From: Escherichia phage welsh | Sequence record: NC_073078.1 | Reading direction: 5' to 3' (one strand) | DNA: 45,207 nt | In this document: positions 10,020 through 42,418 of the stretch, piece by piece | Layout of the letters: each line of letters begins with the position of its first letter | Position numbering within the stretch: position 1 is the first letter of the stretch | Program-made: the position numbers and the translations under genes | The notes under the pieces: generated by a model | What the model was told of the DNA's origin: nothing | What the model saw: the letters and a program-made list of their open reading frames with translations, nothing else | Database searches by the model: none

Positions 10020-10322
10020 ATGGCATTCGGTATCGCAACGTGGGACGCGCAAGGACGCCCAAACAACTACGGCATTAAACCGGTAAGCGTGATCGGAAGG
10101 ATTCATCTTGCGGAAGGACAAAAATCAGGCGCATGGTCATTCCCTGTACCGGCGGGGATGAAGGTCGGATACGTGGTCGCACTGGATGAAGGCGCGGTCG
10201 GGCCAGGCCGCAGAATAACCGCCAGCGGGAACACTATCACGGTTTCCGCGGCAAGTGCGGTAGGTGGCGGGGTTTACTCCGCATCTGAATGTGACGTTAT
10301 TGTTTTTGTGGAGCGAGCATAA
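10020..10322 (+). CDS. Hypothetical protein (tail-associated by position)
   Basis: 100 aa ORF with RBS GAGG upstream; no recognisable motif. Confidence 0.4.
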   Translation: MAFGIATWDAQGRPNNYGIKPVSVIGRIHLAEGQKSGAWSFPVPAGMKVGYVVALDEGAVGPGRRITASGNTITVSAASAVGGGVYSASECDVIVFVERA

Positions 10323-10996
10323 TGGCTAATTACGGCGCGTTGATTGACTTACCAAACGGCAACCCGTTTATCACGCCAGAATCGACGCCGTTTTGTCTAT
10401 TCCGCCGTGTGGTTGTTGGGTCTTCGGCAAACGGCACTGCGCAGTCGGCGGCTGCCGATATTAATTTGGGTGGTGACTACCCGGCAATAGCGTTTGTGAA
10501 AACTACGCACACCGCCCAGCCGACCGTCGTAGGGTCTTCTCGCGTTGGTAATGTGGTGAAGGTGAGAGCCAGCAATCCATTCGGGCGAGGCTTCACGATG
10601 ACGGCTTACATCTTTGCCATATTCCCACAGACCCTTCCGCGGTGGGGCTTCGCTATTTGGGATAAGACGGGGAAGCTAGTACTTACTAATGAGAGTCGCG
10701 TACTAAGCGATTTAGTTACCGTCGGATCTCCTGGCGCTAACGGGGGGATTAACATTGACCAGACGCTAAATGGCAGCTACGCCGTCGCTCCGGGCATATT
10801 GGGGTCTACGCTGATCCGGTTTTTTGTGCAGGGCCAGCCGCAAGTAATATCGGTAACGGCGTACACGGGGGCCAGATTTGATGGGTCGCGAACGCGTATA
10901 TCAGCAGCGTCGTCGGGGAACGCCACGGGGGATGTGGTGGGGTATACTAACAACGGCAACGCGATTATGGCGATTAACACGGCCAATTATGATTGA
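10322..10996 (+). CDS. Hypothetical protein (tail-associated by position)
   Basis: 224 aa ORF, start overlaps the previous stop; Gly/Thr-rich, likely beta-rich. Confidence 0.4.
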   Translation: MANYGALIDLPNGNPFITPESTPFCLFRRVVVGSSANGTAQSAAADINLGGDYPAIAFVKTTHTAQPTVVGSSRVGNVVKVRASNPFGRGFTMTAYIFAIFPQTLPRWGFAIWDKTGKLVLTNESRVLSDLVTVGSPGANGGINIDQTLNGSYAVAPGILGSTLIRFFVQGQPQVISVTAYTGARFDGSRTRISAASSGNATGDVVGYTNNGNAIMAINTANYD

Positions 10997-11015
10997 AGAA
11001 AGCCCCGAAAGGGGC

Positions 11016-11234
11016 TTATTTGCAGGTGGTGCTTTTGAAGTGGTCGACCGACACATACTGGAAGTTGAACGGATACCCCGCCTTGAGCATTTTGTGCCCG
11101 CTAAAGTCGGCGACACCGAACACTGGTACAGAATACTCCATACCGCTATTCATATATGTCGCGTCGCAGATTTTAGACGGCATACCGGCACAACCGGACA
11201 GAAGAACCGCACAAATCATAATTAAAGTTTTCAT
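11016..11234 (-). CDS. Small lipoprotein, candidate receptor-blocking superinfection exclusion protein
   Basis: Internal ATG at 11234 with AGGAGA RBS; MKTLIMICAVLLSGC is a signal peptide with lipobox LSGC; 72 aa; opposite strand, between tail genes. Confidence 0.55.
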   Translation of the reverse strand: MKTLIMICAVLLSGCAGMPSKICDATYMNSGMEYSVPVFGVADFSGHKMLKAGYPFNFQYVSVDHFKSTTCK

Positions 11235-11313
11235 GTTATCATCTCCTATATTTGGTTGAGTTTTAGTATTACACCTCTCAACCAGGATTGCAACCAATTA
11301 CGAGGATTTAGCT

Positions 11314-14939: not shown

Positions 14940-15002
14940 GATGTGGTCCTGTTTATGGGAGGCCGTATTGCCTCCCGACGCGTTAACTATAGTGCAACCA
15001 AC

Positions 15003-15703: not shown

Positions 15704-16160
15704 TCTCGCTCATTATTTCAATTTGTGCGCTGCCGATGGGCGGCGCTTCGTCAAATATTATCAATTGCTGGCATTTGTTATTGCTCGGCCCTACTTCACC
15801 GGTGACGGCGTGAATGAATCTAATCCGCCAGTCCAGAAGAATTATCAGGTTTGCAGTCTTCCGGGCCAGCCTCGCCCACTTCGTCGACGTGTCCTGATTC
15901 AGCAGCATGACAGTCCGGCGTCCGTGCGCTGCGCACTCTACCCACGGCAGCGGATCGGAATACGGCGGATTGCACCACTTCCACCCTTTCAACTCGGACC
16001 AGTCCACATCAAGCGCGCTGTGTTCCGCCGTGAAGTAACGCGGTAGCAGGTGGTTTGCATCGCTTGCCGCCATATCGTAACGGAATCGGTACTTCCGACG
16101 AAGCGGTTTAAATAAAGCTGGCGGCGTGCGCCAGCTATCTTTTTGCTCACTCTTCTGCAT
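15675..16160 (-). CDS. DNA N6-adenine methyltransferase (phage Dam-type)
   Basis: DSWRTPP near the N-terminus and WCNPPYS (NPPY catalytic motif); 161 aa, typical of the small phage Dam family. Confidence 0.8.
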   Translation of the reverse strand: MQKSEQKDSWRTPPALFKPLRRKYRFRYDMAASDANHLLPRYFTAEHSALDVDWSELKGWKWCNPPYSDPLPWVECAAHGRRTVMLLNQDTSTKWARLARKTANLIILLDWRIRFIHAVTGEVGPSNNKCQQLIIFDEAPPIGSAQIEIMSESELHEYLNR

Positions 16161-16169
16161 GATCTGGGT

Positions 16170-16604
16170 CTATCGCATACAGGGCAATTTTCTTGTCGCT
16201 GGACAGAACGCGCCGGACTCGGGCCATACCGCCGGACCCAGCGGTCGGCTATCGGAATAGTAGCTGCCGTTCGCACGCCACGCTATCAGCACCGGGTCTT
16301 TCCAGTCGATCTTAGACTGGCGGCCCTTCGGGCGCACGTATTCCTCGGCCCGTTTGCAATGCTCGCGCAGACCTTCGGCAGTGATGCGGTTTAGCGAAAC
16401 GCTGGTTGTGTATCCGGTGCGCTGCATAATCCCCATCAATTCGAAAAGCAGTTCGAAGCGCTCCTCTAGCTCCTGGCGCACTTTCTTCTCGCCTTCATAT
16501 AGCGCCTGTTTGGTGTCCGCCAACGCGTTCGCACGTTCGGCCTGTTCGCGGGCTTCGAGGCATTGCGCGGCCCAGTATGCTTTTTCTTCTTGTAAAATTT
16601 TCAT
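16170..16604 (-). CDS. Hypothetical protein
   Basis: 144 aa; N-terminal coiled-coil character; no recognisable motif. Confidence 0.4.
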   Translation of the reverse strand: MKILQEEKAYWAAQCLEAREQAERANALADTKQALYEGEKKVRQELEERFELLFELMGIMQRTGYTTSVSLNRITAEGLREHCKRAEEYVRPKGRQSKIDWKDPVLIAWRANGSYYSDSRPLGPAVWPESGAFCPATRKLPCMR

Positions 16605-16847: not shown

Positions 16848-16928
16848 CGTGTTGTCTCCAGGTATTAAAAAGGGCGTCCAAACCGGACACCCTAAATATA
16901 ATGCAACCAATATGATTATGCAACCAAT

Positions 16929-29154: not shown

Positions 29155-29229
29155 ATTTTGCGCGCATTGGTTGCCGATATGGGAATTCCCATATCGCTAA
29201 AAGATTAAATTTTGCGCGCGTTGGTTGCC
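29146..29229. repeat. 30-bp direct repeats flanking a perfect 20-bp palindrome
   Basis: AAAGATTAAATTTTGCGCGC(A/G)TTGGTTGCC at about 29146-29175 and 29200-29229 (1 mismatch); GATATGGGAATTCCCATATC at about 29176-29195; the left repeat overlaps the primase stop codon. Confidence 0.8.
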
Positions 29230-29269
29230 ATTTTGGGTGTTTCTATCTGGTCGTATTGGTTGCCGTGTA

Positions 29270-29480
29270 GTGTAAATATAATGAATAGTTATGCAGTTTT
29301 ATTGCATAAAGTAAGCGGGACAAAAAGCGGGACAAACAAGGGGCGGGACAAAGCGGGACAGCACCCCCGTCCCGCCCCGGATGGCGCGGCTTCCAGAGGA
29401 GCGGGACAGCGGGACAGCACCCCAGTCTTTCAGACTAGACGGGGGTCAACGGCCCCCCTCGTCTGAGACTGAATAAAATC
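29270..29480. repeat. GCGGGACA box array, copy B, with the conserved 3' hairpin module
   Basis: Seven or more GCGGGAC boxes. About 29393-29477 is near-identical to copy A (about 1016-1090); the 39-bp stretch between box clusters differs in sequence but is the same length as in copy A. Confidence 0.8.
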
Positions 29481-29626
29481 CGGGGATTGCAAAATACACG
29501 GCAGCATGATGCGAAGCGCGGTCACGGATGAACTAGGCAACCAATGCGAGTTGCAGAATGGTGGGTGAAAAATGCAGTTTGCAGTCACAGCAGATAGCGA
29601 TCAACTTTTTCATGCGCGTGATTAAT

Positions 29627-29662
29627 ATTGGTTGCATTCGGCCTGGCACCTTGCTATATTGG
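29627..29662 (+). promoter_or_regulatory. Candidate promoter overlapping two ATTGGTTGCA motifs
   Basis: TTGCAT, 17 nt, TATATT, about 30 nt before ATG 29689. Confidence 0.35.
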
Positions 29663-29688
29663 TTGCACACCAACATGAGGACTGAACA

Positions 29689-30015
29689 ATGAAAGCGATT
29701 ATCTGGAATTACGCAATGGCTATGGCGAAGGCACAAGAAGCGGCGGAGTTCGCCGGTGAAGGAGCGGAAGCGGTCGAAAGACTATCGGCAGCGTGGTCCG
29801 TTGTTCGCGTCACGCAGCAGGCCATCGCCTGTATGCTGGAGCGCCGCTTCGACACGATGGCAGAGATCCAGCCACTAGCGAACGCAATCCAGGACTACGC
29901 GCTTGCATTTGCCCGTGAGCGCCTGGCGTATCGCTTCGGGATCGGTGAGACGGCAGTGACAAACGTCGCCCGGATTAAAGCCCAGCGCGAGCTATTCGCC
30001 CAGCTTGCGAAATAA
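29689..30015 (+). CDS. Hypothetical protein
   Basis: 108 aa, predicted all-alpha; no recognisable motif. Confidence 0.45.
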   Translation: MKAIIWNYAMAMAKAQEAAEFAGEGAEAVERLSAAWSVVRVTQQAIACMLERRFDTMAEIQPLANAIQDYALAFARERLAYRFGIGETAVTNVARIKAQRELFAQLAK

Positions 30016-34219: not shown

Positions 34220-34792
34220 ATGAACAAAAGGGCTTATATCATGGCAGAAATCAAAGTTAAGGGCCGACGCGCCAAACTGGACGGACGAGTAGCAGTAACC
34301 CCTCGCCGTAAACCAGGCGAGCAAACCGAGCATACCAATCTCGGACCTGAAATCGAGTACGGCAAGCGCCGTAAAGGCGGCAAATGTGGACGCCCTACTG
34401 ACTACCGATCCGTTTACTGCGACCAGCTTCGCCGCTATTTTGCCGATGCCGACGCCTGGCAGGTCAATTACTCCGATAAAGGCGCTGCGCAAGTAATCCC
34501 CCGCAACAAAATGCCAACCTTCGGTCGATTTGCCGCTGAAATCGGCGTAGGCGTAGCTTGCCTGTACCGCTGGGCGCGAGCACATGAGGAGTTTGCCGAA
34601 GCGATGGCGGACGCAATGGAACTGCAGAAAACTTTCCTGATGGAAGCCGGTGGCGTGACCATCGCGGCAGGCTTCGCTACGTTCCTGCTTAAAGCAAACC
34701 ACGGCGTCCGCGACGATGTACCGCTGGATGACGACGAAGATGATAACGGCGACGTAGTTGTCGAACCTTCCGGCAAAGGTCAGGGTGAATAA
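34220..34792 (+). CDS. Terminase small subunit
   Basis: ATG 34220 with GAGGG RBS; basic N-terminus; directly upstream of and overlapping the large subunit. Confidence 0.55.
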   Translation: MNKRAYIMAEIKVKGRRAKLDGRVAVTPRRKPGEQTEHTNLGPEIEYGKRRKGGKCGRPTDYRSVYCDQLRRYFADADAWQVNYSDKGAAQVIPRNKMPTFGRFAAEIGVGVACLYRWARAHEEFAEAMADAMELQKTFLMEAGGVTIAAGFATFLLKANHGVRDDVPLDDDEDDNGDVVVEPSGKGQGE

Positions 34793-36177
34793 TGCGTAAC
34801 TATGCGGCAGAACACCGCGCACTGGAACGCGCGATCGCAAAGCGTAACCGACCGCCACGCCCGACACGCGTTGCGCAGGCCGTCCGCCTTTACCAGCCAG
34901 ATTGCCTTCCGCACCAGGTCGAACTGCTGCGTGACACGAAGACTAAAATCCTCGGCCTGTGTTCCGGCTTCGGTGGTGGGAAGTCGTGGGTCGCGGCGAG
35001 AAAGGTCATCCAGCTTTTAACACTAAACCCCGGTCATGATGGCATCGTAACAGAACCGACGATTCCCCTCCTGGTTAAAATCATGTATCCGGAATTGGAA
35101 AAGGCATTCGACGAGGCGGGCTTCCGGTGGAAGTTCAATAAGCAGGACAAGATCTATAACGTGCTTGTGAAAGGCAAATGGACCCGCGTTATCTGTGAGT
35201 CAATGGAGAACTATACCCGCCTGATCGGGGTTAATGCCGCGTGGATTGTTGCCGACGAGTTCGATACCACGAAGCAAGACGTCGCGCTGGCGGCGTATCA
35301 CAAATTGCTCGGTCGTCTGCGTGCGGGCTTCGTCCGCCAGTTCGTCATCGTGTCAACGCCTGAAGGCTACCGGGCGATGTATCAAATTTTCGAGGTGGAG
35401 AAGGATAGCCAGAAACGCTTGATCCGGGCGAAGACCACGGACAACCACCATTTACCGGCAGACTTTATCGACACGCTGCGTAGTCAATACCCAGCTAACC
35501 TGATCGACGCGTACCTGAACGGCCTGTTTGTTAACCTTACGTCGGGCGCGGTGTACAAGATGTTCAACCGCGAGGAGAACGCCAGCACCGAAGAAGTGCA
35601 GCCGGAGGACACGCTGATTATCGGTATGGACTTTAACGTCACGAAAATGGCGGCGGTCGTGTACGTCAGACGGCAGCGAGTCACCGAGAACAAGGAGTTC
35701 CGCGACGAGATTCACGCGGTGGATGAATTTGTGGACCTGTTTGATACCCCGGCTATGATTGAGGCGATCGAGGAGCGCTACCCCGATCATTGTGCTGCCG
35801 GTCGTGTTGTCGTTTACCCGGATAGCAGCGGCAAATCCCGCAAGACGGTCAACGCGTCGTCGTCCGATATCGCACAACTGGAAGACGCGGGCTTCGAGGT
35901 GGAGTATGACAGCGTTAACCCACCTGTGAAAGACCGATTGATCGCGATGAATACGATGATGTGCAACTCGAAGGGCGTGCGCCAGTATTTTGTCAACCTG
36001 GATAAATGCCCTACACTAGCGAAATGTCTGGAACAGCAGGTTTACGACCTGAAGAAAGGCGAGCCGGATAAAACCGCCGGGGTGGACCACATGAACGATG
36101 CCGCGGGCTACCCTATTGCGCACTTGTTCCCTGTGATTCGTCCGATCGCCGTTGTTCCAACTGTAGACTTCTACTAA
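34792..36177 (+). CDS. Terminase large subunit
   Basis: Walker A-like GLCSGFGGGKS, Walker B VADEFD, C-terminal nuclease-like acidic residues; 461 aa. Confidence 0.85.
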   Translation: MRNYAAEHRALERAIAKRNRPPRPTRVAQAVRLYQPDCLPHQVELLRDTKTKILGLCSGFGGGKSWVAARKVIQLLTLNPGHDGIVTEPTIPLLVKIMYPELEKAFDEAGFRWKFNKQDKIYNVLVKGKWTRVICESMENYTRLIGVNAAWIVADEFDTTKQDVALAAYHKLLGRLRAGFVRQFVIVSTPEGYRAMYQIFEVEKDSQKRLIRAKTTDNHHLPADFIDTLRSQYPANLIDAYLNGLFVNLTSGAVYKMFNREENASTEEVQPEDTLIIGMDFNVTKMAAVVYVRRQRVTENKEFRDEIHAVDEFVDLFDTPAMIEAIEERYPDHCAAGRVVVYPDSSGKSRKTVNASSSDIAQLEDAGFEVEYDSVNPPVKDRLIAMNTMMCNSKGVRQYFVNLDKCPTLAKCLEQQVYDLKKGEPDKTAGVDHMNDAAGYPIAHLFPVIRPIAVVPTVDFY

Positions 36178-36188
36178 GGAAACCGACC

Positions 36189-37709
36189 ATGACCGTTAAC
36201 GTTGACAACCAGCACCCGCTCTATGCGCGCATCGCGCCAGAGTGGAAAATGATCCGTGACTGCGTAGCAGGGGAGCGCGCCGTGAAGGCGTGCGGGCCAT
36301 TGTACCTGCCACACCCAGCCAGCGGCGACACTACCGACCCGAAATCAAGGGCACGCTATAAGGCCTATAAGCAACGTGCAGTCTTCCTGAACGCCACCGC
36401 CCGCACACTGAATGCACTGTTAGGCGTCGCCTTCGCCAAACCGGTGAGTATGAACCTTTCCGGGGCAATTGCTGACCTGATCGAAGACGTAGACGGCAGC
36501 GGGATGCCCCTGGCGCAACTCCTGCGCGGCGCTATGTCGGAAGTGCTGCAATCAGGCCGTGCCGGGTTTATGGTCGACTACGACCGCCAGGCGAATTTTG
36601 ACGAACTGGGTAACGTAGTACCGCAGACCGCCGCTGAAATGGCAGCACACCGCCCGCTTATCCGCCTGTACACGGCAGAACAGATCATCAACTGGCGGCA
36701 GACCCACGGCGTCGATACGCTAATTGTGCTGAAGGAAACGGACGAAATCAGCACCGAAGACCCGGACGATTTCGCAAACCACGAAGTAACAATCTGGACC
36801 GAGCTTCGCATGATTAACGGTGCGGCACACGCCCGCCGCTGGTACTACAACGCCGACACGTCCGAGGTGCAAATGGACTTGCCGCGTGGATTCACCCGCA
36901 CCGACCTGGTGCCGCTGGTGGATGCCGCCGGTAATGCACTGACTCAACTTCCGTTTTGCTGGTGTGGCGCGGTGGACAACAACGCAACGCCAGACGCCGC
37001 TCCGCTGGCGGATATCGCATCCATCAACATTAAGCACTACAACGCCGAAGCGGACGTCGCCGAGATTGCGCACATCGTGGGCCAGCCTACCCTGGTTGCG
37101 ACGGGCTTGACTCAATCATGGGCTGACAAGAACCTGAAAGGCGGCATCGCGCTCGGAGCTACTAAGGGCGTTATTCTGGGCCAGAACATGGACGCCAAAC
37201 TGATTCAGGCTGAGGAGCGCAACTTGTCTGTTGCACTGTGTGAGCGACGCGAATTGCAAATGGCTAAACTGGGCGCGGCCCTGGTCGAGAAGGGGACCGC
37301 ACCTAAGACGGCAACCGAGGCGGCCTACGATGCGCAGACTGATAACAGTATTCTGTCGCTTATTGCCGGTAACGTTGAGAAGGCTTTCAACCGTGCGCTG
37401 CAAATCGTCCAGCTATTCACGGGCGACACCGCCGACCAGCGCGTAACGCTGAACAAGTTCTACACCGAAATCACGGTTGATGCGCAGCTTATGACCGCGA
37501 TGATGTCGGGGGTGCAGACCGGCACGGTCCGCTTGGCGGATTTCATCAAGTGGATGATGGCGCAGGGCGTCATCGACGACTCGCAAACCGTCGAGCAGGT
37601 GGAAGACGAATTGCGAAATCAGAATCCATTGCCTCAAATGTCCCCCGATGCGGTAGAATCTACCGAAGAAGACCCGGACAAGGTAGCGGACAATGGCGAA
37701 GACAATTAA
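36189..37709 (+). CDS. Portal protein
   Basis: 506 aa directly after the terminase large subunit; acidic C-terminus. Confidence 0.7.
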   Translation: MTVNVDNQHPLYARIAPEWKMIRDCVAGERAVKACGPLYLPHPASGDTTDPKSRARYKAYKQRAVFLNATARTLNALLGVAFAKPVSMNLSGAIADLIEDVDGSGMPLAQLLRGAMSEVLQSGRAGFMVDYDRQANFDELGNVVPQTAAEMAAHRPLIRLYTAEQIINWRQTHGVDTLIVLKETDEISTEDPDDFANHEVTIWTELRMINGAAHARRWYYNADTSEVQMDLPRGFTRTDLVPLVDAAGNALTQLPFCWCGAVDNNATPDAAPLADIASINIKHYNAEADVAEIAHIVGQPTLVATGLTQSWADKNLKGGIALGATKGVILGQNMDAKLIQAEERNLSVALCERRELQMAKLGAALVEKGTAPKTATEAAYDAQTDNSILSLIAGNVEKAFNRALQIVQLFTGDTADQRVTLNKFYTEITVDAQLMTAMMSGVQTGTVRLADFIKWMMAQGVIDDSQTVEQVEDELRNQNPLPQMSPDAVESTEEDPDKVADNGEDN

Positions 37710-38796
37710 TCAATATATGGCGGATCGCATGATCCGCCGTCACATCTTCACCCAGCGCCTGAGCAATGACCAGGCGCGGAGGGTGCTGGCTATGTGGGAG
37801 AAGTTCCGGCCCGCTTTACTGGGTAAGTTGACCGAGTTACTTGATGGTAAAAAGTCCATGAGCAACAAGGCACTTACCACACGTTTAACGCAACTCGACA
37901 AGACCGTCAAAACGGAACTGCGCACCGAGTTTAAGGCGCTGGCTGAAAGCCTTCAGGAGTTCGCCGACACCGAGGCTGATTATCTCGCCGACACATTAAC
38001 GGCAGCGATCCAGCCAGCAGTCGCCGTGCCCGCTGTCGAGGTGGTGGGTGTTGTGACCGGCGCGCAGATCGCAGCGACTGCAATGAAAAACCCGTTCCAG
38101 GGTAATACGATGATGCAATGGCCTGACTCACTCTCTGAGTGGACCAGGACGCAGATCGGCAATCAGGTGCGCGCGGGATTCATCCAGGGCAAGCCGACGA
38201 TGGAAATTATTGCGGACGTGAGGCGCGCGCTAGGCGGTCGTAGTGCGCAAGCAATCTCAAGCGTTGTTAAGTCCGCAGTCAACCACTATGCGGCGACCGC
38301 CCGCGAATTAATGGTGAAAGCTAATGACGATATTCTCGAAGGTCGCCAATGGTTGGCTACATTGGACACTCATACTTCCCCAATGTGCCAGCTACGCGAT
38401 CGCCTGTTTTATCCTGTTGACGTCACTCCCAACACCAAAGGAAAGCGCGGCGGGAAAGTGGTGGCGGGGTCACAATATGGCGCTGGTCCGGGCAAGTTGC
38501 ATTATTGTTGCCGGTCTACGGAGACGTGGAAAGTTAAGGGCATGGAAGATTGGCCCAGTGGTAAGCGTCCGGCACTGAAGGCTGACGCGGGTCGGTTGCT
38601 GAGTGAGCAGGTCGACGCGCAGACTGATTTCTTCTCCTGGGTGCAGCGCCAGCCGCGCCACATCCTGGAGGAATTATATGGGGTGCAGCGCGCGGACCAG
38701 ATTATGCGCGGCGTGAAAGTGCCGAAGATGTTCACTGATACCGGCGAACTAATGACTATTGCACAGCTTAAAAACCGGGGGTTATGGCGTGATTAA
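37693..38796 (+). CDS. Head morphogenesis / minor head protein
   Basis: 367 aa following the portal, overlapping its end; by position resembles the minor head protein that follows portal genes in many phages. Confidence 0.55.
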   Translation: MAKTINQYMADRMIRRHIFTQRLSNDQARRVLAMWEKFRPALLGKLTELLDGKKSMSNKALTTRLTQLDKTVKTELRTEFKALAESLQEFADTEADYLADTLTAAIQPAVAVPAVEVVGVVTGAQIAATAMKNPFQGNTMMQWPDSLSEWTRTQIGNQVRAGFIQGKPTMEIIADVRRALGGRSAQAISSVVKSAVNHYAATARELMVKANDDILEGRQWLATLDTHTSPMCQLRDRLFYPVDVTPNTKGKRGGKVVAGSQYGAGPGKLHYCCRSTETWKVKGMEDWPSGKRPALKADAGRLLSEQVDAQTDFFSWVQRQPRHILEELYGVQRADQIMRGVKVPKMFTDTGELMTIAQLKNRGLWRD

Positions 38797-39097
38797 GTAT
38801 GCAGCGATTGGGCTGGTAATTGGCCTGGCGGTTGGATTCTGGCTGGGTGATTCCTACCGCGCTGGCGTTGTGGCGAGAGCGGCGCAAGAAGCGCAAGCGA
38901 AAGCCCAACGGCAGCAAACTAAGGTTGTCGAGGGGGCAGTGCAGGCCGAACAGGCCCGCGATGTGGAATACCGGACTATCACGAAAGAGGTTGTGAAATA
39001 TGTTACGCGTCCTAACCGTCCTGATTGCAGTTTTGATGCTGAGCGCGTGCGGATCAAGCAAAGCGCCATTGATGCCGCTAACCGAGTCGGTCTATAG
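38789..39097 (+). CDS. i-spanin (Rz-like)
   Basis: GTG 38789 with GGGGG RBS (track ORF starts at TTG 38759); N-terminal transmembrane helix AAIGLVIGLAVGFWL, then a coiled-coil Ala/Gln-rich periplasmic domain. Confidence 0.6.
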   Translation: MIKYAAIGLVIGLAVGFWLGDSYRAGVVARAAQEAQAKAQRQQTKVVEGAVQAEQARDVEYRTITKEVVKYVTRPNRPDCSFDAERVRIKQSAIDAANRVGL

Positions 39098-39230
39098 ACC
39101 TCCTTGCACCTTTGAGAATGCCTCGGCAGATCCAGACGAAGACTTGCTGGTTGATGTTAAGAATATGGAGTGTGGAGCGAAGCTGCGGGCGCAAGTGCTG
39201 GAGTTGCAGAAAATAATTCGGGGGCCGTGA
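39000..39230 (+). CDS. o-spanin (Rz1-like lipoprotein), overlapped architecture
   Basis: Signal peptide with lipobox LSAC, Pro-rich; starts in another frame inside the i-spanin gene and extends beyond it. Confidence 0.65.
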   Translation: MLRVLTVLIAVLMLSACGSSKAPLMPLTESVYRPPCTFENASADPDEDLLVDVKNMECGAKLRAQVLELQKIIRGP

Positions 39231-39245
39231 TGGCCCCCTTTTCGT
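39218..39245. terminator. Bidirectional terminator between the spanins and the minus-strand island
   Basis: GGGGGCC-gtgat-GGCCCCC followed by TTTTCG on the + strand; U-rich also on the minus strand. Confidence 0.6.
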
Positions 39246-40009
39246 TAGCGCGGAATACCGCAAATCTCGTTTAACGTCTTCACGTCCAGCGCCACCGCCG
39301 TGGACTTCGGCTTGTCCGGGTAAGGAATGAACTGCTCCACTTCAGGCCACGCCTTGATCAGCTTCTTATCGGTATTGTGCATATCCAGCACGCCGGTAAC
39401 AGTTAGTTTGAACGCATCATACTTAGCACGCAAATCGCGGCGGGCCTTGTCGTTACGGTCCAGGCGCTTACAGAAATCATGGTCCGCCGGGTAGTCTACG
39501 CGACCGCGAGGAAGATATATCGGCAACGCTTTCCCGTCCTCGTCCACTTCGCACACGGACGCGAGCATTACTTCTTCGTACCCAGGTACGATATCGCCGA
39601 GATCGGGAGATAGCTTATTCATGTATTTATACTCCCAGTATCCGCGATGTACTCGGAATCGGTGTCCGTCCCCGCTCAATGACACGGTACGGACGTTTCC
39701 GCCTGCGTTGATTTCGAAAGTAGCGTCGTAAACGCTGCCTATACCATATGGGCTGTCGGCGTCATGTCTATACGTCGCATTATTGGTGTACACACAGACG
39801 CCGTACATCTGCGACGGGTCATCGCCGATTGCTTCAATGCGCTCACGTAGCTCGGCGAAAGTGCGAATGCCTTCCGGCATACAGTGCAACGTAATGTCAT
39901 ACGCCAGGTCGCGTGAGTCCTTCATGATGGATTTGGCTTCGGTCGCGATTTCATGGTCGCGCAGGATGTTAGCCAGAATCTGGTTTTTAATGTCTTTCGT
40001 CAGTCTCAT
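39245..40009 (-). CDS. Hypothetical protein (254 aa), minus-strand insert in the head module
   Basis: Long ORF with GAGGGC upstream; no motif I can assign. Confidence 0.55.
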   Translation of the reverse strand: MRLTKDIKNQILANILRDHEIATEAKSIMKDSRDLAYDITLHCMPEGIRTFAELRERIEAIGDDPSQMYGVCVYTNNATYRHDADSPYGIGSVYDATFEINAGGNVRTVSLSGDGHRFRVHRGYWEYKYMNKLSPDLGDIVPGYEEVMLASVCEVDEDGKALPIYLPRGRVDYPADHDFCKRLDRNDKARRDLRAKYDAFKLTVTGVLDMHNTDKKLIKAWPEVEQFIPYPDKPKSTAVALDVKTLNEICGIPR

Positions 40010-40048
40010 TTTTGTGCCCTCGTTGTTGGGGCTTTCGCCCCGTTTGGA

Positions 40049-40363
40049 TTAGTTAAACTTGATGTTGCCACCGGTGGAAGTTAAGCGAGCGCATACAGCT
40101 TCAACGGCATCGACGCACATGAAATCGTTAAAGGCTTCGACCAGGGCGTTGATGAATGATGCCGGAACCAGACCGCAAGCCGGATTATCGAAGGTCGCGG
40201 AATTTATTGCAGCCTTCGCTGCTTCATTAGCGTTCATGCTCTGGCACAGATTCAGCGCTTCAGCGTTACGCATTGCGTGAAAGGTAAAGGTATTGGCTAC
40301 GGTAGCTTTATTGAAACGGGTCATTGCTACGTCTACTGGAGTTACTACGGTCATGTTAGTCAT
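40049..40363 (-). CDS. Hypothetical protein (104 aa)
   Basis: ORF upstream of the 254 aa gene on the same strand; its promoter region carries tandem TGCAACCAAT motifs. Confidence 0.5.
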   Translation of the reverse strand: MTNMTVVTPVDVAMTRFNKATVANTFTFHAMRNAEALNLCQSMNANEAAKAAINSATFDNPACGLVPASFINALVEAFNDFMCVDAVEAVCARLTSTGGNIKFN

Positions 40364-40518
40364 TTTGTTTTTCCTTCATATCTCTGTTGGTGTGCAACCA
40401 ATATATGCAACCAATACACGGATTGCAAGCTAATTTTGCGATTATTTTTATCACTGATAATATTAGAGGCGTGAAGTCGAGCGGGTGGCCCGCTCTGCCA
40501 CAATCCCAGGGGGATAGC

Positions 40519-41220
40519 ATGAAACTTACTAAAGCAGAATATGACGCGTTGCCGGAAGGTATGAAGGCGCTTTTTGTTGCCGATGGCGACGGGTATAAAT
40601 CAACTTTCATGACCGCAGAAGAAGTACAGGCGGAAATCAAGGGTCTGAAAGACAACAACGCTAAGCTGGTGAGCGAGAAGAAAGCAGAAGCCGAACGCCG
40701 CGCCGAAGCTGAGCGCCTTGCGAAAGAGAAAGAGGAAGCCGCCGCGCGCAAAAATGGCGACCTTGAAGCGATCGATAAGTCCTGGAAAGATAAGTTTGCG
40801 AAACACGAAGCAGACACATCGGGAAAAATCGAAGCCTACCGCAAGCAGATCCACGATCTAACCATCGGCAGCGCTGCCAAAGACCTGGCATCGAAGCTGT
40901 TCGGTAAGAATGCTGGCATCATGCAACGTCACGTTATGGACCGCCTGACGCTGGAAGACGGCGAAGACGGCAGCTTGAAAGTGCGTGTCTTGCAGGATGG
41001 CAAACCGTCCGCGCTGACTATGGAAGAGCTTGAAAAAGAGTTCCGTAATAACGCCGATTTTGCATCCGTCCTGGCTGGCACGCCAGCCGGTGGCGCGCCT
41101 AGCAAACCGACGCAGGTTGTCGAAGATGTGAAGTCTAAAATTACGATGGGCCATAGCTTCGGTATCACCGATCTCACCAAACAGGCCGGGGATATCATCG
41201 CTAAAATGGGCGACGAGTAA
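40519..41220 (+). CDS. Head scaffolding protein candidate
   Basis: ATG 40519 with GGGGGA RBS; about 233 aa, charged coiled-coil (KEKEEAAARK...), directly upstream of the major capsid gene. Confidence 0.5.
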   Translation: MKLTKAEYDALPEGMKALFVADGDGYKSTFMTAEEVQAEIKGLKDNNAKLVSEKKAEAERRAEAERLAKEKEEAAARKNGDLEAIDKSWKDKFAKHEADTSGKIEAYRKQIHDLTIGSAAKDLASKLFGKNAGIMQRHVMDRLTLEDGEDGSLKVRVLQDGKPSALTMEELEKEFRNNADFASVLAGTPAGGAPSKPTQVVEDVKSKITMGHSFGITDLTKQAGDIIAKMGDE

Positions 41221-41317: not shown

Positions 41318-42418
41318 ATGTCTTTAACAGTGTTCCAGCGTAAACTCGTTACCGCGGTTACGCAAATGATCCCCGACAACCTGAACGTTTTCAACGCTGC
41401 CGCCAATGGCGCTGTTGTTCTCGGTACTGGAGAAGTGCTGAAGGATGTTGTAGAAAAAATGTCCGTAGGCTTGATCGCCAACCTTGTTACCGACCGTAAC
41501 GCCTATGCCCCTGTAGGTACTCCGGCGACCGCAAAAGTGCTGGCGCGTATGCTGACCAACTCCGTTAACCTTTCCGCGAAAGTGGGTCCGGTGGCAATCA
41601 CTAAGGCCATGATGGCTAAGATCGAAACCAATGTTAACAGCGTTGCGGCTGAGATTGCGGCGCAGGCTACTCAAGCGATTATGCTGCATTACCTGAAAGC
41701 GGGTATCGGTGCGGGTAAAGCGGCGATCGAGAGCAACAACAACGCGGTATACACCCAACCGGCGCGCGTTGATGGCGTTGGCGGTCGTACCTTCCCGACC
41801 CTGGCTGACTTCCCTCTGGCGGCTTCTAAGTTCGGCGATCAGGCGTCTTTGATTAAATCCTGGTTTATGGACGGCGTTACCTGGGCAAACTTCATTGCAT
41901 ACCAGGCGCTCCCGTCTGCCGAGCAGGTATTCGCAATCGGCGATCTTCAGGTAATGGGTGATGGCCTGGGCCGTCGTTTCATTATCTCCGATGCCGCTGC
42001 CGATGCTATGGGTGCTGGTAAAATGCTGGGTCTGGTCCCTGGCGCGGTTGCAGTTACGACCAACGGCCTCGATATGCTGGCGCAGGAAAAAGGCGGCAAC
42101 GAGAACATTGAGCGCTGGTGGCAGGGTGAGTTCGACTTCAACGTGGCGGTTAAAGGCTACCGTCTGAAGGCGTCCGCTCGTACCCCGATCGAAGGCATTC
42201 GCTCGTTCAAGCTGTCAGATATCACCACTAAGGACAACTGGGAGCTTGACCAGGGTCAGGTAGACAACGCACCGGCAACCGTGCAAGACGTTGGCGCTGT
42301 TGGTGATGGCGATACTAAAGGCCGTCGTAAGACCCAGGCAGCACAGGCAGTGCCGACCCGTCACATCAAGGAAACCGCTGGCGTACTGGTTACGCTGACG
42401 GCGACTACCGCGTCTTAA
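41318..42418 (+). CDS. Major capsid protein
   Basis: 366 aa after the scaffold candidate, followed by a strong terminator. Confidence 0.7.
   Translation: MSLTVFQRKLVTAVTQMIPDNLNVFNAAANGAVVLGTGEVLKDVVEKMSVGLIANLVTDRNAYAPVGTPATAKVLARMLTNSVNLSAKVGPVAITKAMMAKIETNVNSVAAEIAAQATQAIMLHYLKAGIGAGKAAIESNNNAVYTQPARVDGVGGRTFPTLADFPLAASKFGDQASLIKSWFMDGVTWANFIAYQALPSAEQVFAIGDLQVMGDGLGRRFIISDAAADAMGAGKMLGLVPGAVAVTTNGLDMLAQEKGGNENIERWWQGEFDFNVAVKGYRLKASARTPIEGIRSFKLSDITTKDNWELDQGQVDNAPATVQDVGAVGDGDTKGRRKTQAAQAVPTRHIKETAGVLVTLTATTAS

Follow-up and report, generated by a model that had tools for sequence, protein, structure and literature searches.

A probable leftward accessory module of nmad5 and an exchangeable cassette among the head genes of Escherichia phage welsh

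Tmn is a membrane NTPase defence that Dhillonviruses evade through the substitution K216E in the protein Nmad5 (PMC11846954). Tmn-escape mutants of two phages, SM_A8 and SM_S22, carried the same Nmad5 substitution, K216E and K296E, respectively (Yamashita et al. 2025, Commun Biol 8:290; PMC11846954). In the same study, reversion of the substitution in the escape mutants brought Tmn sensitivity back, while deletion of nmad5 was tolerated and gave no escape, the phage being still Tmn-sensitive. Cloning of nmad5 failed, apparently because of toxicity, and the authors read Nmad5 as a modification enzyme (PMC11846954). In phage T2, Tmn is triggered directly by RIIB, an early protein tied to the replisome and the membrane, and T2 escapes Tmn through nonsense mutations in rIIB (PMC13001434).

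The family name Nmad5 stems from the thymidine-hypermodification cassette of M6-like phages. The Nmad domains were reportedly defined by Iyer et al. in 2013. In the M6-like phages of Pseudomonas and Bordetella, the Nmad5 genes sit among genes for aGPT-Pplase, 5-hmdU kinase, radical-SAM, PLP, and hydroxymethylase proteins, and welsh lacks all of these. The M6 pathway has been rebuilt in vitro from gp51, gp52, gp53, and gp54, in a paper that makes no mention of Nmad5.

The nmad5 gene of phage welsh is the orthologue of SM_A8 CDS7 and SM_S22 CDS6. Its product is 94% identical to SM_A8 CDS7 and has K216. The three phages have this gene in one and the same location (its product likewise has 254 aa in SM_A8), with the same flanking genes and promoter region, but a cassette with a 104-aa gene lies upstream of nmad5 in welsh and SM_A8 and not in SM_S22. 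The main gene and its link to Tmn are already published. What we add is the cassette architecture of the slot upstream of nmad5, evidence that the two genes are independent and that hypermodification machinery is absent, an annotation artefact in SM_S22, and the finding that Nmad5 has no known fold.

The locus also resembles the morons of the Hendrix type, which are likewise extra genes in a structural operon with their own promoter and terminator (predicted in welsh), and presence varies among close relatives in both cases. Unlike such morons, nmad5 is carried by almost the whole genus and matches the genome in GC content, and the cargo genes of the slot behave like exchangeable cassettes behind one invariant promoter and not like independent insertions. 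We consider, with a probability of about 0.6, that the locus is a leftward accessory module in a Dhillonvirus cargo hot spot, in which nmad5 encodes an early binding protein and the 104-aa gene is a swappable cassette.

The leftward locus and its flanking genes

The window analysed here, 45,207 nucleotides (NC_073078.1), is the complete Dhillonvirus genome of welsh; its length is near that of other Dhillonvirus genomes (about 44-45 kb), and its gene order is common to annotated ones. A megablast search with 2.6 kb around the locus matched 157 phage records, with a query coverage of 80% or more in 133. Almost all are Dhillonviruses of Escherichia or Shigella, with 85-95% identity. An earlier, sequence-only reading had placed two minus-strand ORFs of 104 and 254 aa between the spanin and scaffold genes. 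Both ORFs are present with ATG starts, and PHROG matches confirm their place. The genes of the locus and its flanks, with the hairpin that closes it, are as follows.

34792-36177, flank of the locus: large terminase gene
36189-37709, flank of the locus: portal gene
37693-38796, flank of the locus: gene for a Mu-F-like head morphogenesis protein
38759-39230: Rz and Rz1 spanin genes (PHROG matches)
39220-39238, no strand assigned: GC-rich hairpin GGGGGCC-GTGAT-GGCCCCC, predicted to be terminator-like on both strands
39245-40009, minus strand: nmad5, 254 aa, ATG start (PF18757, phrog_1965)
40049-40363, minus strand: 104-aa gene, ATG start (phrog_24635)
40519-41220: scaffold gene (phrog_206)
41318-42418, flank of the locus: major capsid protein gene

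The two ORFs lie on the same strand with 39 nt between them, and inspection of the sequence finds a Shine-Dalgarno-like GAGGG 5' of nmad5 and GAAGGA 5' of the 104-aa ORF. Median dN/dS over 6-14 relatives was 0.11 for nmad5, 0.08 for the 104-aa gene, and 0.03 for the scaffold gene. Since both ORFs are under purifying selection across relatives, both are real genes. At the protein level, nmad5 changes about 8 times faster than the scaffold gene (dN 0.057 vs 0.007). The hairpin at 39220-39238 (-19.9 and -18.4 kcal/mol on the two strands) lies between the convergent Rz1 and nmad5 genes and overlaps the Rz1 stop codon. It fits the bidirectional terminator proposed earlier at about 39218-39245, and the records of HK578 and PTXU06 have an annotated terminator in this position, too.

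Proteins encoded here might be morphogenetic, as an assembly chaperone or a minor head protein. The place of nmad5 between the head morphogenesis and scaffold genes is kept even in a 63%-identical lineage, the 104-aa protein has a sub-threshold Pfam match to a tail assembly chaperone (E = 0.059), and a Vibrio myophage carries an Nmad5-like C-terminal domain inside its tail module. However, both genes run against the head genes and have a predicted promoter and terminator of their own, natural genomes without one or both of them exist, Nmad5 is found in early or replication operons in other phages, and the nmad5 deletion is viable (PMC11846954). Mass spectrometry of pelleted particles of the Dhillonvirus EE09 detected 24 phage proteins. 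Those encoded by the genes that flank the locus on both sides (CDS29, 30, 34, and 35) were among them and EE09_32 (Nmad5) was not, which, coming from one proteome, is weak negative evidence. We regard a morphogenetic role as highly improbable and already mostly refuted. The earlier proposal of counter-oriented, non-structural accessory cargo instead agrees with the variable content of the slot, with an Nmad5 that goes undetected in the virion of a relative, and with the published genetics of nmad5, namely its deletability, its apparent toxicity on cloning, and its tie to Tmn. That reading was right in outline, and what it describes was largely already known.

The Nmad5 family and DNA hypermodification

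A profile search places the 254-aa protein in the Nmad5 family. It matches Pfam PF18757 with E = 7e-58 (196.5 bits, cut-off 27), its residues 1-253 aligning to profile positions 1-206, that is, over the full length, and it matches phrog_1965 with E = 3.9e-61. The earlier view that neither protein has a recognisable motif does not hold for the 254-aa protein, with its full-length Nmad5 domain. Both the N-terminal MRLT and the C-terminal T..KL...WPE ... LN..CG.P are present in the welsh protein, and T213, L217, W221, P222, P229, L246, and N247 are near-invariant among 117 diverse members. The family comprises 857 clusters at 50% identity.

An AF2 model of Nmad5 was built with a 32-sequence alignment, single-sequence AlphaFold having given a pLDDT of 34; its weak stretches are residues 75-89, 116-130, and 234-241. 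No solved structure matched the predicted fold. Sequence searches of the PDB with Nmad5 and the 104-aa protein, by single sequence and by profile, returned nothing, nor did either protein match the PADLOC and NCBIfam libraries. Conserved Cys, Lys, and Thr residues are present in Nmad5, and we found in it neither a known enzyme fold nor invariant residues of a catalytic type.

The M6-like proteins belong to the same Pfam family, keep the C-terminal motif, and share 38% identity over 86 residues with the welsh protein. The PAC5 copy, from an M6-like phage, has 186 aa vs 254 aa in welsh; when shorter relatives are aligned, the additional residues of welsh Nmad5 form a variable segment in its middle part. 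When the nine proteins of the PAC5 cassette were compared with the window by tblastn, only Nmad5 matched (E = 9e-11); the best E values of the other eight were at least 0.1. Hydroxymethylase, 5-hmdU kinase, aGPT-Pplase, PLP, and radical-SAM partners are all absent from the window, and thymidine-hypermodification enzymes are likewise missing from the annotated Dhillonvirus relatives. Nucleotide-modification genes beside nmad5, none of which occur in welsh, are a contextual feature and do not define the family by sequence. In our reading, welsh Nmad5 is not part of a DNA-hypermodification pathway.

The gene contexts of Nmad5 in other phages point the same way. A relative is encoded in 344 phage records, which include about 150 Dhillonviruses and about 63 M6-like phages (54 of Pseudomonas and 9 of Bordetella); among the rest are about 65 Stx-converting or other lambdoid phages and 39 Vibrio phages. 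Our survey of gene context covers five lineages. In the lambdoid phages, which are temperate, the gene is the first after N in the early leftward (pL) operon, among dispensable early accessory genes. Its product (HK542c102; the 207-aa protein of PhiR12_2) is a full-length Nmad5 domain (E = 8.6e-71) with about 24-33% identity to that of welsh and has no known phenotype. In Guernseyvirinae-like phages, Nmad5 is encoded by the second gene of an operon, after an ORF of about 160 aa, and the operon continues with a PD-(D/E)XK exonuclease, a single-strand-binding protein, and DNA polymerase A. On a contig with a 36%-identical Nmad5, the gene converges on a terminase-portal-MuF-spanin block, as in welsh. 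The recurring context is thus early, replication-linked, or accessory genes, which argues against base modification.

A partial relative occurs in Vibrio phage 1.017.O (4557-5276), where the similarity of a 239-aa protein to Nmad5 is confined to the last 90 residues of the latter. Its gene lies inside the myophage tail module, on the same strand as its neighbours, between the gene for a 516-aa protein with transmembrane helices, which we take to be the tape measure, and a DNA-circulation/baseplate gene.

The alternative that Nmad5 is an enzyme, or an essential cofactor, that modifies phage DNA, and that Tmn senses or depends on modified DNA, was put forward with the Tmn genetics (PMC11846954). 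The Pfam name and the position inside the M6-like cassette favour it, as do DNA methyltransferases adjoining Nmad5 in two other phages, two methyltransferases encoded by the welsh genome, and the conserved Cys, Lys, and Thr, and the missing known fold leaves room for a new enzyme. On the other hand, the partner enzymes are missing from the window, the M6 pathway was reconstituted without Nmad5, most Nmad5 genes are in phages without a hypermodification cassette, and neither an enzyme fold nor catalytic-type residues were found. Moreover, the nmad5 deletion leaves Tmn sensitivity unchanged, whereas a modification-sensing model predicts a change. We consider this alternative unlikely and prefer to read Nmad5 as a protein that would act by binding.

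Exchangeable cassettes upstream of nmad5

Among about 155 Dhillonvirus records, nmad5 is full-length in 149, and the 104-aa gene is present in 59. The sequence-only reading had treated the two ORFs as one unit, and this part has to be given up: nmad5 is near-universal in the genus, and the 104-aa gene is an optional cassette. Most Dhillonviruses lack the 104-aa gene, and in most of those without it the region spans about 300 nt instead of 661. The cassette is absent from relatives with nmad5 alone as a clean indel, seen in the alignment with SECphi18 and a further genome (L021). Unrelated cargo genes have in common a 3' linker hairpin, GGGGCTTTCGCCCC, and are bracketed by repeated GTTGTTGG, and from this shared linker and these brackets the cassette is placed at about 40030-40390. 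Its features in welsh are two.

40027-40042, minus strand: intercistronic stem-loop GGGGC-GAAA-GCCCC (-11.5 kcal/mol, no U-run on the coding strand)
40030-40390, minus strand: cargo cassette with the 104-aa gene, about 361 nt, with a flanking GTTGG/GTTGTTGG repeat

The stem-loop is the conserved 3' boundary of the alternative cassettes, and the junction is identical in welsh, PTXU06, and EP23. Given the common hairpin linker and the leader repeat, the cargo genes behave as exchangeable cassettes. Relatives differ in the content of the slot and in the state of nmad5 as follows.

SECphi18 and Envy-like genomes: slot empty, nmad5 only
PTXU06: 135-aa gene
EP23, 1392-1904: 170-aa gene with weak beta-clamp similarity
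HK578: 140-aa gene, no nmad5
SO-1, 1274-1792, and TheodorHerzl, 1274-1792: 172-aa gene only
SM_S24: nmad5 truncated
Teewinot: only the first 67 codons of nmad5 kept

The gene nmad5 is absent or truncated in HK578, SO-1, TheodorHerzl, SM_S24, Teewinot, and a metagenomic contig (L011). Comparison with related phages, proposed earlier as a check, shows that the flanking genes are unchanged in some relatives that lack the 104-aa gene or an intact nmad5. In SO-1, a Sodalis phage, the 172-aa gene product (gp07) is annotated in its record as a 'possible moron gene product'.

Two further observations concern the cargo of relatives. The 170-172-aa gene of EP23, TheodorHerzl, and SO-1 has a sub-threshold match to the central domain of the DNA polymerase III beta subunit (residues 10-58) and a strong match to a PHROG labelled RusA-like resolvase (E = 5e-55), which conflicts with the clamp annotation. 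On contig L011 (Logan ERR14075358, 1299-1562, protein P0009), the two genes are merged in frame into an 87-aa ORF, with 45 codons from the start of the 104-aa gene and 42 from the end of nmad5, while the flanking head genes are intact. This fusion may have arisen by a genuine deletion or be an artefact of assembly.

The 104-aa protein is soluble, with a pI of 5.1 and no hydrophobic segment. Its family has the invariant core DNPACGLVP...F..AL..AF.DFM.VD.V..VC.RL, in addition to invariant H29, C63, and C91, and forms nine clusters in a large protein collection, all at least 61% identical. Homologues with 56-64% identity occur in the Pantoea Dibbivirus AAM37 and in Ackermannviridae, where they lie among small early genes with no Nmad5 nearby. 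The GC content of the 104-aa gene is 48.6% (GC3 0.52), vs 53.1% (GC3 0.64) for nmad5 and 54.6% for the genome. Profile comparison found no relationship of the 104-aa family to the cargo genes of HK578 and EP23, nor to the gene upstream of Nmad5 on another contig (L010).

If the two ORFs worked together as a pair, such as toxin and antidote or the two components of an anti-defence system, their adjacency on one strand, 39 nt apart behind an apparently common promoter and terminator, would be explained, as would the reported toxicity of Nmad5 on cloning. Yet most Dhillonviruses carry nmad5 without the 104-aa gene, its Pantoea and Ackermannviridae homologues have no Nmad5 neighbour, other Nmad5 loci have unrelated neighbours, and relatives replace the cassette with unrelated genes. 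The obligate co-occurrence expected of a toxin-antitoxin pair is not seen, and we regard a functional pair as very unlikely. The two genes are independent of each other and occur separately.

Transcription signals, Tmn, and a proposed role for the module

The sequence-only reading had also described a divergent region with tandem motifs and a promoter of the island's own. Both descriptions hold, the promoter as a prediction, and the elements are these.

40364-40518, no strand assigned: divergent regulatory region, 155 nt, nearly invariant across the genus whatever the cargo
40393-40415, plus strand: tandem pair of TGCAACCAAT, 13 nt apart, with exact copies at 40393 and 40406
40428-40400, minus strand: predicted sigma-70-like promoter TTGCAA-17-TATATT for the leftward genes

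In an alignment of 11 genomes, most columns of 40364-40518 are invariant. With at most one mismatch, TGCAACCAAT occurs at 17 sites genome-wide vs 3.5 expected, a count reached in 0 of 100 shuffles, and all 17 sites are kept at orthologous positions in Bas85. The sites (11289, 14993/15005, 16902/16919, 19864/19876, 26352, 29166-29667, 30212, 32796, and 40393/40406) are often paired, 12-31 nt apart, with one perfect inverted pair at 14993/15005. They occupy gaps between genes of the leftward replication/early operon, the rightward stretch of small genes that follows the helicase-primase gene, the sequences 5' of the DNA-repair exonuclease and tail-fibre genes, and the 40393/40406 region. The -10 and start region of the predicted minus-strand promoter, TATATTGGTTGCACACCAACA, is found again ahead of the rightward gene at 29689. 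Likewise, the motif copy nearest the 104-aa gene reads ATTGGTTGCACACCAACA on the minus strand, and the same extended sequence precedes the gene at 29689. The module is probably transcribed with the non-structural genes and not with the late head genes.

We rejected TGCAACCAAT as a single promoter element, since part of its copies coincide with a -10-like TATATT, whereas a -35-like TTGCA is provided by others; given this mixed placement, we call the motif promoter-associated only. A literature search for the TGCAACCAAT sequence gave nothing relevant.

Other elements were noted near or beside this motif family. A stem-loop, GAGCGGG-TGG-CCCGCTC, lies on the plus strand at 40478-40495, within the scaffold leader and immediately 5' of the ribosome-binding site. 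Across 11 genomes it hardly varies, apart from a G-U change in some of them, and it might serve the head operon as an attenuator or a processing site. Another small patch of non-structural genes, at 10020-11297 between the tail genes and the tail-fibre gene, has the TGCAACCAAT site at 11289 in its divergent region, and relatives annotate its homologues as outer-membrane or membrane-associated moron proteins. The pair at 16902/16919, of the same motif family as that in the nmad5 promoter region, is intergenic and precedes a small gene ahead of a minus-strand ORF at 16150-16604, about 300 nt upstream of that ORF. The ORF product is 78% identical over 125 residues to SM_S22 CDS0035, which is presumably the published anti-Tmn gene ORF35, assuming that the numbering matches.

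The published SM_S22 Nmad5 (PP627283, 1506-2510, minus strand) has 334 aa and was described with an N-terminal extension. We find that these 80 additional residues come from an annotation that reads through the conserved intergenic region and that the true start is residue 81, MRLTKDIK. Accordingly, K296 of SM_S22 and K216 are the same residue. Dhillonvirus defence papers on KpAvs2/Ksap1 and on RAZR/portal were also considered and concern other genes.

Nmad5 could also be a direct protein trigger seen by Tmn, as RIIB is for T2, with K216E abolishing recognition. Independent escape mutants of two phages changed the same conserved residue, with sensitivity restored by reversion, Nmad5 is tied to replication modules in other phages, and in T2 an early replisome-associated phage protein does trigger Tmn directly (PMC13001434). 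However, the nmad5 deletion phage stays Tmn-sensitive, whereas T2 escapes through rIIB nonsense mutations. Since the deletion gives no escape, Nmad5 is not the sole Tmn trigger, and we judge the direct-trigger explanation improbable. K216E must do something that loss of nmad5 does not, and no model accounts for this difference. In these genetics the missense allele alone alters the outcome with Tmn, and the separate anti-Tmn gene is located elsewhere in the genome. For both wild-type proteins, an anti-defence, superinfection-exclusion, or toxin activity, as proposed earlier, would be hypothetical.

In the accessory module that we favour, two independent parts would lie between the spanin terminator and the scaffold promoter. 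The first, nmad5, would be a gene of the phage-specific Nmad5 family that is close to core in the genus, yet dispensable, and whose product is not part of the virion; it is probably expressed from a host-type promoter with the motif family of replication and early-region genes. Nmad5 may act as a binding protein and not as an enzyme, through a surface formed by the conserved N-terminal MRLT and the C-terminal T-x-x-K-L-x-x-x-W-P-E ... L-N-x-x-C-G-x-P. Its action would be early and host-toxic, at the stage of DNA replication or host takeover. The second part, the 104-aa gene, is a swappable cassette just downstream of the promoter. Unrelated cargo genes take its place in relatives, and the exchange probably proceeds by recombination at the shared hairpin linker and the repeated leader sequence; its product is probably a small accessory or host-interaction protein.

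A bolder form of this model, which we put forward tentatively and hold to be rather doubtful, is that Nmad5 is misnamed: it would be a widespread early binding protein of new fold, active in replication or host takeover, that shapes what Tmn-like membrane defences perceive. One invariant promoter would drive hairpin-bounded exchangeable cassettes, and the 104-aa protein, with its invariant His and Cys residues, would be a host-interaction or anti-defence effector shared with unrelated phage families.

The annotation of the 254-aa gene should read nmad5. Its presence should not be read as a sign that the DNA of Dhillonviruses, which serve as coliphages for therapy and as models, is modified. 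Phage engineering has a ready-made payload site in the slot that separates nmad5 from the invariant promoter, since natural insertions, replacements, and deletions are tolerated there. The Nmad5 family is large and confined to phages, and it has no known fold or activity; K216E against Tmn gives it one clear genetic handle, and a genome without hypermodification genes makes the real function of Nmad5 directly testable. If the bolder form of the model is true, the Dhillonviruses, without such genes, would be a clean system in which to define Nmad5.
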